From Escherichia coli (GTDB taxonomy: Bacteria; Pseudomonadota; Gammaproteobacteria; Enterobacterales; Enterobacteriaceae), in the NCBI RefSeq assembly GCF_024502345.1, contig NZ_JALDNN010000001.1: 64,000 bases of DNA; one strand, 5' to 3'. Shown here piece by piece: positions 10,920 through 56,031 of the stretch. A program made the position numbers and the translations under genes. Position 1 is the first letter of the stretch, and every line of letters starts with the position of its first letter. The notes under the pieces were generated by a model, which saw nothing but the letters and a program-made list of their open reading frames with translations, was not told where the DNA came from and did not search any database.

Positions 10920-14272
<3,353 letters not shown>

Positions 14273-14707: not shown

Positions 14708-15209
14708 AACCTGTTCCTTATTCTGTGAACTTCAGGTGACATTAAAGCTTTACTCCTAATGGAGAAACGACGCAATCCCAACTCGGTCAAACAGGTAAAT
14801 ATTAGTCTGATTATTAGTAAAGACAATTAATCAATCACTCCCGGTGATCATATAATTTCAAATGTAATTATAAGAAAATAGTGTACTGATTCTCCGCATT
14901 AAACAAGTGGTTAATATATGTAAAACATTTCATCAACATTAAGTTGATTGTTGCCTTTCTTTGTATTTAATTAGTTTGTTGTGCGGTAAGTGTCTGTTTA
15001 AAAATAGCTTATCTGGTATTGCATGAAAGTGATTATTTATAGCAGATGATTATTTACGGTGAGTTATTTTGACTGTGCGCAACATCCCATTTCGATTATT
15101 CCTGTTTCATTTTTGCTTGCTAGCGTAGCGAAAAACTTTTTAACAGATTGAAATACACCCAAAACAAAAGTATGACTTATACATTTATGTTAAGTAACTG
15201 AGTGTTTTG

Positions 15210-15225
15210 TGTGATCTGCATCACA
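15210..15225. promoter_or_regulatory. CRP site in the flhDC regulatory region
   Basis: TGTGA-tctgca-TCACA, a perfect consensus about 270 nt upstream of the flhD ATG, consistent with the known CRP activation site. Confidence 0.8.
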
Positions 15226-15486
15226 CATTATTGAAAATCGCAGCCCCCCTCCGTTGTATGTGCGTGTAGTGACGAGTACAGTTGCGTCGATTTAGGAAAA
15301 ATCTTAGATAAGTGTAAAGGCCCATTTCTATTTGTAAGGACATATTAAACCAAAAAGGTGGTTCTGCTTATTGCAGCTTATCGCAACTATTCTAATGCTA
15401 ATTATTTTTTACCGGGGCTTCCCGGCGACATTACGGGGTGCGGTGAAACCGCATAAAAATAAAGTTGGTTATTCTGGGTGGGAATA

Positions 15487-15837
15487 ATGCATACCTCCGA
15501 GTTGCTGAAACACATTTATGACATCAACTTGTCATATTTACTACTTGCACAGCGTTTGATTGTTCAGGACAAAGCGTCCGCTATGTTTCGTCTCGGCATA
15601 AATGAAGAAATGGCGACAACGTTAGCGGCACTGACTCTTCCGCAAATGGTTAAGCTGGCAGAAACCAATCAACTGGTTTGTCACTTCCGTTTTGACAGCC
15701 ACCAGACGATTACTCAGTTGACGCAAGATTCCCGCGTTGACGATCTCCAGCAAATTCATACCGGCATCATGCTCTCAACACGCTTGCTGAATGATGTTAA
15801 TCAGCCTGAAGAAGCGCTGCGCAAGAAAAGGGCCTGA
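15487..15837 (+). CDS. flhD: Flagellar master regulator FlhD
   Basis: Start [12 protein letters not shown] gives 116 aa; the track ORF begins 9 nt upstream at GTG. Confidence 0.95.
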
Positions 15838-15839
15838 TC

Positions 15840-16418
15840 ATGAGTGAAAAAAGCATTGTTCAGGAAGCGCGGGATATTCAGCTGGCAATGGAATTGATCA
15901 CCCTGGGCGCTCGTTTGCAGATGCTGGAAAGCGAAACACAGTTAAGTCGCGGACGCCTGATAAAACTTTATAAAGAACTGCGCGGAAGCCCACCGCCGAA
16001 AGGCATGCTGCCATTCTCAACCGACTGGTTTATGACCTGGGAACAAAACGTTCATGCTTCGATGTTCTGTAATGCATGGCAGTTTTTACTGAAAACCGGT
16101 TTGTGTAATGGCGTCGATGCGGTGATCAAAGCCTACCGTTTATACCTTGAACAGTGCCCACAAGCAGAAGAAGGACCACTGCTGGCATTAACCCGTGCCT
16201 GGACATTGGTGCGGTTTGTTGAAAGTGGATTACTGCAACTTTCCAGCTGCAACTGCTGCGGCGGCAATTTTATTACCCACGCTCACCAGCCTGTTGGCAG
16301 CTTTGCCTGCAGCTTATGTCAACCGCCATCCCGGGCAGTAAAAAGACGTAAACTTTCCCAGAATCCTGCCGATATTATCCCACAACTGCTGGATGAACAG
16401 AGAGTACAGGCTGTTTAA
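15840..16418 (+). CDS. flhC: Flagellar master regulator FlhC
   Basis: 192 aa; starts 2 nt after the flhD stop. Confidence 0.96.
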
Positions 16419-16444
16419 CTGATACGGTGAGGCGCAACATTCCA

Positions 16445-16476
16445 GCAGCGGTAACGACGTACCGCTGCTTTTTTTT
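16445..16476 (+). terminator. Rho-independent terminator after flhC
   Basis: gcagcggta-acgac-taccgctgc hairpin followed by a T8 run. Confidence 0.8.
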
Positions 16477-16544
16477 GCCCCAATCGCGCGTTAACGCCTG
16501 ACGACTGAACATCCTGTCATGGTCAACAGTGGAAGGATGATGTC

Positions 16545-17428
16545 GTGCTTATCTTATTAGGTTACCTGGTTGTTCTCGGTACAGTTTTCGGCGGTTATTT
16601 GATGACCGGTGGAAGCCTTGGAGCACTCTATCAACCCGCTGAACTGGTGATTATTGCCGGTGCAGGGATTGGGTCGTTTATCGTCGGCAATAATGGCAAA
16701 GCGATTAAAGGCACGCTGAAGGCGCTGCCGTTGCTGTTTCGTCGCTCCAAATACACCAAAGCAATGTATATGGATCTGCTGGCTCTGCTTTATCGGTTGA
16801 TGGCGAAATCGCGGCAGATGGGGATGTTTTCGCTGGAACGTGATATTGAAAATCCCCGTGAGAGCGAGATCTTCGCCAGCTACCCACGCATCCTCGCGGA
16901 TAGCGTCATGCTTGATTTTATCGTCGATTATCTGCGTCTGATTATCAGCGGTCATATGAACACCTTCGAAATCGAAGCCCTGATGGATGAAGAGATTGAG
17001 ACGCACGAAAGCGAGGCAGAAGTCCCGGCGAACAGTCTGGCGCTGGTCGGGGACTCACTTCCGGCGTTTGGTATTGTCGCGGCTGTAATGGGGGTCGTTC
17101 ACGCGTTAGGTTCAGCCGATCGTCCTGCCGCCGAGCTGGGTGCGCTTATCGCACATGCGATGGTGGGGACTTTCCTCGGCATTTTATTGGCTTACGGATT
17201 TATTTCCCCATTAGCGAGTGTTTTACGTCAGAAAAGCGCCGAAACCAGCAAAATGATGCAGTGCGTCAAAGTCACTCTGCTTTCTAATCTGAACGGTTAC
17301 GCACCGCCTATCGCCGTTGAGTTTGGTCGCAAAACGCTCTATTCCAGCGAACGTCCGTCGTTTATTGAACTGGAAGAGCATGTGCGTGCGGTGAAAAATC
17401 CGCAACAACAGACGACAACCGAGGAAGC

Positions 17429-17432
<4 letters not shown>
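16545..17432 (+). CDS. motA: Flagellar stator protein MotA
   Basis: 295 aa; GTG start. Confidence 0.95.
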
Positions 17433-20324
<2,892 letters not shown>

Positions 20325-20344
20325 ATGAGTAAAAAGGTAACAAT

Positions 20345-20848
20345 ATGACCGGTATGACGAATGTAACAAAGCTGGCCAGCGAGCCGTCAGGCCAGGAATT
20401 TCTGGTATTTACCCTTGGTGATGAAGAGTACGGTATTGATATTCTGAAAGTGCAGGAGATCCGTGGCTACGATCAGGTAACACGGATTGCAAACACGCCA
20501 GCGTTTATCAAAGGCGTCACGAATCTGCGCGGCGTTATTGTGCCGATTGTTGACTTACGAATTAAGTTCAGCCAGGTGGATGTGGACTATAACGACAACA
20601 CGGTAGTTATCGTCCTGAATCTCGGACAACGGGTGGTTGGCATCGTGGTTGACGGCGTCTCAGACGTGCTTTCATTGACGGCGGAGCAAATTCGTCCGGC
20701 ACCAGAATTTGCCGTGACGCTTTCAACAGAATATCTCACTGGACTGGGCGCACTGGGCGACCGGATGTTGATTCTGGTGAACATCGAAAAACTGCTGAAC
20801 AGCGAAGAGATGGCGCTGTTAGATAGCGCGGCGTCAGAAGTGGCGTAA
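20345..20848 (+). CDS. cheW: Chemotaxis coupling protein CheW
   Basis: 167 aa. Confidence 0.96.
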
Positions 20849-20876
20849 TTCTCCCGATTTCCTCAATTGAAATGAA

Positions 20877-20904
20877 CCCGATGATCTGCGCATCGGGTTT
20901 TTTA
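20877..20904 (+). terminator. Rho-independent terminator after cheW
   Basis: cccgatg-atctgcg-catcggg hairpin followed by a T-run. Confidence 0.8.
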
Positions 20905-20934
20905 TTTCAATTTCGCGGCGGGTGGCATCAGCAA

Positions 20935-20961
20935 TAAAGTTTCCCCCCTCCTTGCCGATAA
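20935..20961 (+). promoter_or_regulatory. Sigma-28 (FliA) class 3 promoter of the tar-tap-cheRBYZ operon
   Basis: TAAAGTTT-N11-GCCGATAA, an exact match to the FliA consensus. Confidence 0.9.
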
Positions 20962-20992
20962 CGAGATCAACTTGTTTTCAGGAAGGTGCCTT

Positions 20993-22654
20993 ATGATTAA
21001 CCGTATCCGCGTAGTCACGCTGTTGGTAATGGTGCTGGGGGTATTCGCACTGTTACAGCTTATTTCCGGCAGTCTGTTTTTTTCTTCCCTTCACCATAGC
21101 CAGAAGAGCTTTGTGGTTTCCAATCAATTACGGGAACAGCAGGGCGAGCTGACGTCAACCTGGGATTTAATGCTGCAAACGCGCATTAACCTGAGTCGTT
21201 CAGCGGTACGGATGATGATGGATTCCTCCAATCAACAAAGTAACGCCAAAGTTGAATTGCTCGATAGCGCCAGGAAAACATTGGCGCAGGCAGCGACGCA
21301 TTATAAAAAATTCAAAAGCATGGCACCGTTACCTGAAATGGTCGCTACCAGTCGTAATATTGATGAAAAATATAAAAACTATTACACAGCGTTAACTGAA
21401 CTGATTGATTATCTAGATTATGGCAATACTGGAGCTTATTTCGCTCAGCCAACCCAGGGAATGCAAAATGCAATGGGCGAAGCGTTTGCTCAGTACGCCC
21501 TCAGCAGTGAAAAACTGTATCGCGATATCGTCACTGGCAACGCAGATGATTACCGATTTGCCCAGTGGCAACTGGCGGTTATCGCGCTGGTGGTGGTATT
21601 GATTCTGCTGGTGGCGTGGTACGGCATTCGCCGTATGTTGCTTACTCCGCTGGCAAAAATTATTGCTCACATTCGCGAAATCGCCGGTGGTAACCTGGCG
21701 AATACCCTGACCATTGACGGGCGCAGTGAAATGGGCGACCTGGCGCAGAGCGTTTCACATATGCAACGCTCTTTGACTGACACCGTCACTCATGTCCGCG
21801 AAGGTTCAGATGCCATCTATGCCGGTACCCGTGAAATTGCGGCGGGCAACACCGATCTTTCCTCCCGTACTGAACAGCAGGCATCCGCGCTGGAAGAAAC
21901 TGCCTCCAGCATGGAGCAGCTCACCGCGACAGTGAAGCAAAACGCCGATAACGCCCGCCAGGCCTCGCAACTGGCGCAAAGTGCCTCCGACACCGCCCAG
22001 CACGGCGGCAAAGTGGTGGATGGCGTAGTGAAAACGATGCATGAGATCGCCGATAGTTCGAAGAAAATTGCCGACATTATCAGCGTTATCGACGGTATTG
22101 CCTTCCAGACTAATATCCTCGCGCTGAATGCCGCGGTTGAAGCCGCGCGTGCGGGTGAACAGGGCCGTGGTTTTGCCGTGGTGGCGGGTGAAGTGCGTAA
22201 TCTTGCCAGTCGCAGCGCCCAGGCGGCAAAAGAGATCAAAGCCCTCATTGAAGACTCCGTCGCACGCGTTGATACCGGTTCGGTGCTGGTCGAAAGCGCC
22301 GGGGAAACAATGAACAATATCGTCAATGCTGTCACTCGCGTGACTGACATTATGGGCGAGATTGCATCGGCATCGGATGAACAGAGCCGTGGCATCGATC
22401 AAGTCGCATTGGCGGTTTCGGAAATGGATCGCGTCACGCAACAGAACGCATCGCTGGTGCAGGAATCAGCTGCCGCCGCCGCTGCGCTGGAAGAACAGGC
22501 GAGTCGTTTAACGCAAGCGGTTTCCGCGTTCCGTCTGGCAGCCAGCCCACTCACCAATAAACCGCAAACACCATCCCGTCCTGCCAGTGAGCAACCACCG
22601 GCACAGCCACGACTGCGAATTGCTGAACAAGATCCAAACTGGGAAACATTTTGA
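20993..22654 (+). CDS. tar: Methyl-accepting chemotaxis protein II (aspartate/maltose)
   Basis: Start [11 protein letters not shown] gives 553 aa; C-terminal NWETF pentapeptide. Confidence 0.95.
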
Positions 22655-34409: not shown

Positions 34410-35165
<756 letters not shown>

Positions 35166-35551
35166 TTTTTACCGTTGCATCATGTCGCCCAATATGATGC
35201 TTGCTCGTACCAGGCCCCTGCAATTTCAACAGGGGCCTTTTTTTATCCCTGAGCAGTATAAAAAACGAACGATTACCGTGATCTGTTGAGCGGGTGACAG
35301 TGAACATAGCGTTGTGCTAAAAATATTTTATATATTCACATTAATTATGGGATTTAAATTACTAAAACTAATAAATATATATTCTAAATAGCAACTGGTT
35401 ATTCCTTAGCAATTAATGATTACATTGTAATAAATCATATTCTTTATCGATTATTTCAGGCAGTGTTGTGCCGAATTATGCAAGCGGTTAATTCGTTGTA
35501 TATTTAATTATACAATGATTTCGGTGTTCTGGAATTTAATTAGAGGAATCT

Positions 35552-39157: not shown

Positions 39158-39262
39158 GCCTGATGCGCTATGCTTATCAGGCCTACATAGTCCCTGCAAT
39201 ATATTGAATTAGCAAGGTTTTGTAGGCCGGATAAGGCGTTCACGCCGCATCCGGCAGTAATA
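39158..39262. repeat. REP/BIME cluster
   Basis: gcctgatgcgctatgcttatcaggcctac and tgtaggccggataaggcgttcacgccgcatccggca units. Confidence 0.8.
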
Positions 39263-54588: not shown

Positions 54589-56031
54589 TTACTCTACCGT
54601 TAAAATACGCGTGGTATTAGTAGAACCCACGGTACTCATCACGTCGCCCTGGGTGACAATCACCAGGTCACCAGACATCAAGTAACCTTTATCGCGCAGC
54701 AGATTAACCGCTTCGCTGGCAGCTGCTACGCCGTCATTAGCGCTATCAAAGTGCACCGGCGTAACGCCACGATAGAGAGCAGTCAGGTTCAGCGTACGTT
54801 CATGGCGCGACATGGCGAAAATTGGTAGACCAGAGCTGATACGGGAGGTCATCAGCGCGGTACGACCCGATTCGGTCATGGTAATGATCGCCGTAACGCC
54901 TTTCAGGTGGTTAGCTGCGTACATTGCTGACATGGCAATAGCTTCTTCCACATTGTCGAACTGAACGTCCAGACGGTGTTTAGAAACGTTGATGCTCGGG
55001 ATTTTTTCCGCACCCAGGCAAACGCGCGCCATGGCTGCAACAGTTTCTGACGGATACTGCCCAGCGGCAGTTTCTGCAGACAGCATCACAGCGTCAGTAC
55101 CATCCAGAACGGCGTTTGCTACGTCCATGACTTCTGCACGCGTCGGCATCGGGTTAGTAATCATTGACTCCATCATCTGGGTCGCCGTGATTACCGCGCG
55201 GTTAAGCTGACGTGCACGACGGATCAACGCTTTCTGAATGCCGACCAGTTCCGGGTCGCCAATTTCCACACCGAGGTCGCCACGTGCAACCATTACCACG
55301 TCAGAGGCGAGGATGATGTCATCCATTGCATCCTGGCTGCAAACGGCTTCCGCACGTTCAACCTTGGCAACAATTTTCGCATCACATCCTGCATCGCGTG
55401 CCAGGCGACGGGCATAGTTCAGATCTTCGCCACAGCGTGGGAAGGAGACAGCCAGGTAATCTACGCCAATCAACGCCGCAGTCTTAATGTCTGCTTTGTC
55501 TTTTTCGGTCAGCGCTTCAGCCGACAAACCGCCGCCAAGTTTGTTGATACCTTTATTGTTGGAGAGGGGACCACCGACGGTGACTTCGGTGAACACTTTC
55601 ATGCCCTGAACTTCCAGTACTTTTAACTGGACGCGACCATCGTCCAGCAGCAGGATGTCGCCAGGCACAACGTCAGCAGGCAGGCCTTTGTAGTCGATAC
55701 CGACTTTTTCTTTGTCGCCTTCACCTTTACCCAGGTTGGCGTCGAGCAGGAATTTATCCCCAATATTGAGGAAAACTTTGCCTTCTTTAAAGGTGGATAC
55801 ACGGATTTTGGGCCCCTGGAGGTCACCCAGAATAGCCACATGACGCCCCAGTTTTGCGGCAATCTCACGAACTTTATCCGCGCGCATTTTGTGATCTTCA
55901 GGCGAGCCGTGAGAAAAGTTCATACGTACAACGTTGGCACCCGCCGCGATAACTTTTTCAAGGTTATTATCGCGATCTGTTGCTGGGCCTAACGTGGTAA
56001 CGATTTTTGTTCTGCGAAGCCTTCTGGACAT
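54589..56031 (-). CDS. pykA: Pyruvate kinase II
   Basis: Internal start [16 protein letters not shown] gives 480 aa; the track ORF is extended by 47 aa. Confidence 0.95.

Follow-up and report, generated by a model that had tools for sequence, protein, structure and literature searches.

The closest described systems are the two class 3 (sigma-28/FliA) promoters of Escherichia coli K-12 that serve motAB-cheAW ('mocha') and tar-tap-cheRBYZ ('meche'). By FliA ChIP-seq, the site '(flhC)motAB-cheAW' was recovered with a FAT value of 101 (PMC4183435, Table 2, Fitzgerald et al., 2014) and the tar site with a FAT value of 57, and deletion of fliA lowered motA RNA from 302 to 1, flhC RNA from 320 to 107 and tar RNA from 251 to 0 (PMC4183435). 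The same work reported that the promoter inside flhC, which had been predicted earlier, drives motA, and that a plasmid-complemented flhC deletion remains non-motile because the motA promoter is destroyed (PMC4183435). This promoter is the most conserved among all FliA promoters; it constrains Ala177-Asp178 of FlhC, the D178A variant of FlhC is fully functional, and species without Asp178 tend to have a FliA motif in the flhC-motA gap instead (10.1101/188474). From the motA 5' UTR arises MotR, a sigma-28-dependent sRNA that ends at a terminator before motA and that binds Hfq and base pairs with fliC, rpsJ and other targets, as found by RIL-seq and structure probing (PMC10578931, Melamed et al., 2023, eLife). 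Readthrough of the MotR terminator gives the motAB-cheAW mRNA, and control of this readthrough has been ascribed to S10-NusB antitermination (PMC10578931). The literature already covers the two promoters, the placement of the motA promoter within a gene, the constraint that it puts on the evolution of FlhC, and MotR; the only point below that is possibly new is a predicted antiterminator helix at the 5' end of the MotR leader.

We have compared with these systems a stretch of 64,000 nucleotides of E. coli (RefSeq assembly GCF_024502345.1, contig NZ_JALDNN010000001.1), hereafter the window. It contains the flhDC-motAB-cheAW-tar region of E. coli: positions 15400-21100 match 5,405 of 5,426 complete E. 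coli genomes, the best matches being 99.9% identical, and the RefSeq annotation of near-identical genomes gives the order flhC, motA, motB, cheA, cheW, tar. The window strain is not MG1655, the strain of the cited papers, but the two are identical over the compared sites. The K-12 28-mers TAAACTTTCCCAGAATCCTGCCGATATT (mocha) and TAAAGTTTCCCCCCTCCTTGCCGATAAC (meche) recur verbatim in the window, the latter in the same position between cheW and tar, without a detectable difference in either promoter; the two promoter sites lie 4586 bp apart in the window as in MG1655, and the K-12 mocha promoter, like the window site, overlaps FlhC Ala177-Asp178. The distance from the otsA to the flhC FliA site is 777 bp greater by the published MG1655 coordinates than in the window, and the uspC-flhD intergenic region of the window (14708-15477, 770 nt) is free of IS elements. 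The extra 777 bp is in keeping with the IS1 element that MG1655 carries upstream of flhD; the window strain thus has an uninterrupted flhDC regulatory region. The features on which the argument on motA turns are the following.

15840-16418, plus strand: flhC coding sequence, 192 codons (ORF list, translation, RefSeq annotation), host to the motA promoter and to the first 37 nt of MotR.
16349-16375, plus strand: class 3 (sigma-28/FliA) promoter of motAB-cheAW and MotR, inside flhC codons 170-179.
16382, plus strand: the A (+1) at which MotR and the motAB-cheAW mRNA both begin, in flhC codon 181/182 and 7 nt past the -10 element.
16382-16476, plus strand: MotR sRNA, about 95 nt, running from the last 37 nt of flhC through the intergenic leader to the flhC terminator (literature, primer mapping).
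16444-16476, plus strand: intrinsic terminator common to flhDC and MotR, with stem 16444-16453/16460-16469, loop 16454-16459 and U-run 16470-16476.
16545-17432, plus strand: motA coding sequence, which opens the motAB-cheAW operon and begins with GTG 164 nt downstream of +1 (ORF list, annotation).

FliA sites were sought with a matrix built from 47 published FliA ChIP-seq sites, from which the three sites falling in the window had been excluded, and 127,946 positions of the window were scored (maximum possible 29.1 bits). Published sites reach a median of 16.5 bits under this matrix, and the weakest of the 50 still scores 5.8 bits. The tar site ranks first with 27.2 bits, followed by the flhC-internal site with 23.3 bits, well above that median, and by a site inside otsA with 16.4 bits. 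The otsA site (13116-13143, minus strand, TGAAATTGCACCAGATCGAGCCGATAAT) is itself the published weak intragenic ChIP site '(otsA)', with a FAT value of 2 and otsA RNA unaffected. A consensus scan allowing up to three mismatches returned four matches where 0.62 would be expected by chance. One of them, a three-mismatch match at 55754-55780 on the minus strand, was taken as a chance match: it has GGGGATAA where the consensus has GCCGATAA, reaches 11.6 bits and is absent from the published ChIP sites.

The promoter before tar and its surroundings are made up as follows.

20874-20900, plus strand: terminator hairpin of cheW (motAB-cheAW operon), a 10-bp stem followed by a T-run (terminator scan), just upstream of the tar promoter.
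20935-20961, plus strand: class 3 (sigma-28/FliA) promoter of tar-tap-cheRBYZ, an exact consensus match with the top matrix score, identical to the published ChIP site.
20968-20992, plus strand: predicted 5' UTR of tar, bounded by the ATG at 20993 and by a predicted transcription start about 7 nt past the -10 element.

All 16 consensus bases are present in the tar promoter, with the -35 element TAAAGTTT (20935-20942) and the -10 element GCCGATAA (20954-20961) separated by an 11-nt spacer. No other exact match to TAAA-N14-16-GCCGATAA occurs in the 64 kb, and 100 dinucleotide-preserving shuffles give an expectation of 0.00. It is placed between the cheW terminator hairpin and the tar ATG, which follows the end of the -10 element by 31 nt on the same strand; the ORF list instead gives an upstream in-frame TTG (20972) as the start of tar. 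The transcription start is predicted from the motA promoter, where +1 follows the -10 element by 7 nt. With binding and FliA dependence carried over from the literature on the identical sequence, the tar site is a genuine and ordinary textbook intergenic class 3 FliA promoter. On the opposite strand to cheW and tar, Rfam places a match to the candidate sRNA C0465 (RF00116, 111.6 bits) at 20868-20945; the cheW terminator hairpin lies within this match, which also overlaps the tar -35 element.

The second promoter, TAAACTTTcccagaatcctGCCGATAT at 16349-16375 on the plus strand, lies within the coding sequence of flhC. Its -35 element TAAACTTT (16349-16356) and its -10 element GCCGATAT (16368-16375) are separated by the correct 11-nt spacer and hold 14 of the 16 consensus bases; the -35 element has C for a consensus G, and the -10 element has T for the final A. 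The site is 170 nt upstream of the motA GTG and about 42-43 nt before the end of flhC, within the last 70 nt of the gene. The published +1 cloning primer ACAACTGCTGGATGAACAGAGAGTAC aligns exactly with 16382-16407, which sets the start at the A at 16382. An earlier, sequence-only reading of the window had called the tar element a perfect FliA promoter, and this is borne out by a site that is exact, unique in 64 kb, top-scoring and published as a ChIP site. The same reading had seen no comparable match before motA, and here it was mistaken. It had further left the motA promoter as either degenerate or inside flhC: the location inside flhC proves right, but a site with 23.3 bits and a FAT value of 101, against 57 for tar, is not degenerate. 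The matrix scan that it had suggested for 16200-16545 was run, and the overlooked site at 16349-16375 falls inside that interval.

The flhC-internal promoter is also conserved. Searching with FlhC gave 80 loci from about 35 Enterobacterales genera, of which 71 gap-free genes entered the codon analysis. When each locus was scanned over flhC and the 400 nt after its stop codon, the top FliA-matrix match was found at the same position, ending 42 nt before the end of flhC, in 78 of the 80 loci, with TAAACTT and GCCGATA invariant and a spacer that varies freely. The two exceptions, of which one has codon 3 of flhC turned into a stop and the other a 1-nt spacer deletion, are informative rather than contradictory. 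In Enterobacter sp. Ag1 (L020:1501-1530) codon 3 of flhC reads TAG where E. coli has GAA, and yet the locus keeps an intact internal motA promoter, MotR leader and terminator. In Enterobacter cloacae DSM 26481 (L068:1995-2060) the deletion leaves a 10-nt spacer and frameshifts the last 19 FlhC residues, giving a 203-aa product; it reflects either an error in sequencing or a mutation that strikes protein and promoter together and affects motility.

A match inside a coding sequence may be read as a by-product of conserved FlhC residues (RKLS...AD) rather than as a selected promoter, and residues 167-172 and 177-178 are indeed 100% conserved as protein in the 71 genes. The synonymous positions make this reading highly improbable. 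Third positions in flhC have a median conservation of 0.59, and the 11 degenerate codons with an invariant third position all fall within codons 167-184: GTA AAA (167-168), CGT AAA CTT (170-172), NNT GCC GAT (176-178) and CAA CTG CTG (182-184). CTT encodes Leu172 in 71/71 genes but 12% of the other leucines of flhC, GCC encodes Ala177 in 71/71 genes as against 31% of alanines elsewhere, and CGT, AAA and GAT under the promoter are each kept in 71/71, CGT being used at 35% elsewhere in the gene. At codon 176 the third position is always T, though the amino acid varies. Since the synonymous sites under both promoter elements are thus frozen in all 71 genes, the promoter element is selected as DNA and not through the protein alone. 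Moreover, FlhC D178A is fully functional, and species lacking Asp178 have the FliA motif in the gap instead (10.1101/188474), which also speaks against a mere protein effect. Our codon result agrees with the published constraint on Ala177-Asp178 and adds to it the codons under the -35 element (170-172), those transcribed first (182-184) and an upstream block at codons 167-168:

16338-16345, plus strand: GTAAAAAG (-44 to -37), an invariant block that precedes the -35 element, in flhC codons 167-169.

All 71 genes share this block unchanged, down to the third positions of GTA and AAA, and in our view it may be an UP-element-like contact. One stretch of DNA thus encodes FlhC residues 170-179 as well as the promoter, and this double role keeps its codons frozen across Enterobacterales.

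A degenerate, weak FliA site in the 126-nt gap between flhC and motA (16419-16544) would place the motA promoter where promoters mostly are, in intergenic sequence, and some proteobacteria without FlhC Asp178 do have a FliA motif there (10.1101/188474). In the window, no FliA-like site was found within this gap: the best position reaches 1.2 bits, a background value that 758 of 127,946 positions match or exceed and that is far from the 5.8 bits of the weakest of the 50 ChIP sites. A sigma-70 consensus scan of 15000-21500 likewise gave no plus-strand site in the gap, and overall no excess over shuffles. As both the published ChIP motif and the published start site are inside flhC, we give next to no credence to a promoter in the gap. 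The sequence-only reading, which had reported only the flhC terminator and weak partial matches in this interval, was right that no comparable FliA match lies there; published dRNA-seq, ChIP-seq and RNA-seq comparisons of wild type with a fliA deletion put the start at 16382, outside 16419-16544. Finally, since flhC is followed at 126 nt by motA on the same strand, motA might have no promoter of its own and be expressed by class 1 readthrough from flhDC across the flhC terminator, but this is negligibly probable given a strong terminator with a 10-bp GC-rich stem and 7 U, and given that fliA deletion leaves flhC RNA at 107 and motA RNA at 1, which puts the flhDC share at about 1% or less.

We conclude, with near certainty, that the region holds two ordinary class 3 FliA promoters, of which the motAB-cheAW promoter is embedded in flhC, starts transcription at 16382, has MotR or the readthrough mRNA as its products and lies in codons that have been frozen. 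Binding, FliA dependence, the start site, MotR and readthrough are taken here from the MG1655 literature, and the matches, their ranking, the conservation and the covariation were computed in this study.

Expression of motA from a promoter inside flhC requires readthrough of the terminator at 16444-16476. Terminator scan and folding give this hairpin a 10-bp stem with 6 GC pairs, followed by 7 U. By sequence alone, an intrinsic terminator between the flhC-internal promoter and motA counts against this promoter serving motA; the published readthrough and expression data resolve the point in favor of the promoter. RNA polymerase starting at 16382 meets the terminator, transcripts that stop there are released as the Hfq-binding sRNA MotR, and those that read through become the motAB-cheAW mRNA. 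In an alignment of 40 leaders from 40 genera, the hairpin and U-run are kept in both Enterobacteriaceae and Erwiniaceae while the loops vary; pairing holds in 94.7% of cells, and compensatory changes occur at 3 pairs (19 cells). The covariation score of 0.222 was reached by 0/500 shuffles, and slid-partner controls were lower. A functional terminator thus stands between the promoter and motA, consistent with the two published products, MotR and the readthrough mRNA. Pectobacterium and Brenneria (L072-L078) keep the flhC-internal promoter and the invariant block at the start of the transcript, and their leader after the flhC stop is different: two alternative hairpins overlap in it, GUAGCGAU/AUCACUGU and CUAUCAC/GUGAUAG with a following U-run, which hints at a terminator region that is wired differently.

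The MotR of the window and the published sRNA show no sequence difference, the +1 primer, the arms used for M1 mutagenesis, the 3' cloning primer and the terminator being the same. Primers SM001, SM467 (both arms) and SM002 match exactly at 16382-16407, 16408-16426, 16430-16448 and 16529-16548, and the GTG altered by the seed mutation M1 (PMC10578931) maps to 16427-16429. An Rfam search of the whole window at the gathering threshold returned no match to a MotR family; unrelated to the finding, it returned the MicL sRNA at 34937-35244 (plus strand, 373.7 bits) and ES036/CssrF at 39179-39221 (minus strand, 45.5 bits). In the published RIL-seq data, tar.5UTR is a partner of MotR in two conditions, with 43 and 44 chimeric fragments (PMC10578931). 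The MotR segment GAUACGGU (16421-16428), which overlaps the M1 seed, is an exact 8-mer complement of ACCGUAUC in tar (21000-21007, codons 3-5); some 8-mer complement arises by chance in about 4% of shuffled leaders. The global duplex energy of MotR with the tar leader was no better than that of shuffles, 380/500 and 162/500 of which were at least as stable. The 8-mer, the only specific complementarity found, is weak evidence for a link between the two promoters.

Two further segments of the MotR leader may bear on how the terminator is passed.

16386-16393, plus strand: invariant 5' block CUGCUGGA, at +5 to +12, proposed 5' strand of a hypothetical antiterminator helix.
16441-16448, plus strand: UCCAGCAG, at +60 to +67, proposed 3' strand, made up of a conserved UCC and the first 5 nt of the terminator 5' stem.

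The 5' block is part of CAACTGCTGGA (16383-16393, +2 to +12), the longest invariant run in flhC, synonymous sites included. CUGCUGGA is perfectly complementary to UCCAGCAG over an 8-bp helix, and the UCC beyond the terminator stem is at least 90% conserved amid otherwise variable intergenic sequence. In nascent-RNA folds the helix forms with a probability of 0.97 until the 3' half of the terminator emerges; for the full leader at equilibrium the terminator is favored (-27.6 vs. -23.1 kcal/mol). In the alignment, 98.1% of the proposed helix is paired, without two-sided changes, one strand being invariant coding sequence; the helix is without covariation because its 5' strand does not vary. In the leaders of Pectobacterium and Brenneria, where the terminators differ, the predicted helix is no better than in shuffles, and the 5' block is equally invariant, so something else must also constrain this block.

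On these grounds we raise, as a tentative and rather doubtful model, that readthrough at the flhC/MotR terminator depends on the origin of the transcript, via a 5' antiterminator helix that would be free to form only in the untranslated sigma-28 RNA. In a sigma-28 transcript starting at 16382, CUGCUGGA would be untranslated and available to pair with UCCAGCAG, and this pairing would sequester the base of the terminator stem and lead to readthrough into motA. In flhDC transcripts the same segment would be translated as FlhC Leu183-Asp185, which would block the helix and result in near-complete termination; that ribosomes translating flhC mask the segment is what we infer. The flhDC transcripts appear to pass the terminator at about 1% or less, as judged from flhC RNA at 107 and motA RNA at 1 in the fliA deletion.

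If true, the helix would explain why flhDC readthrough is about 1% or less while sigma-28 motA mRNA (302) is comparable to flhC mRNA. It would also explain the conserved UCC outside the stem and part of the synonymous-site invariance in codons 182-185. A further point is the chance mutant MotR*, described as 'more abundant' (PMC10578931). The mutation changes TGC to GAG at 16387-16389 (+6 to +8), and in our folds it lowers the probability of the helix to 0.10-0.20; the model would explain the greater abundance of MotR*, although MotR* could also merely be more stable. In the literature covered by our search, which was incomplete, we found no proposal of an antiterminator in the MotR leader, and the 5' helix is absent from the text of PMC10578931. 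Attenuators and the expression platforms of riboswitches resemble the MotR leader in having an upstream segment that is complementary to the 5' half of a terminator and is predicted to form first. The MotR leader differs from attenuators in that it is not known to respond to a ligand, leader peptide or protein and in that its terminator is the more stable structure at equilibrium, and we do not claim that it belongs among them.

In summary, the locus suggests that genome scans should look within the preceding gene for a 'missing' promoter, and that a promoter is not excluded as the source of a gene's mRNA by a terminator lying between the two. If real, the predicted helix would give a simple account, at the level of RNA, of why a single terminator separates the flagellar master operon from motA and yet lets sigma-28 transcripts pass, and it would set the ratio of MotR to motA output.
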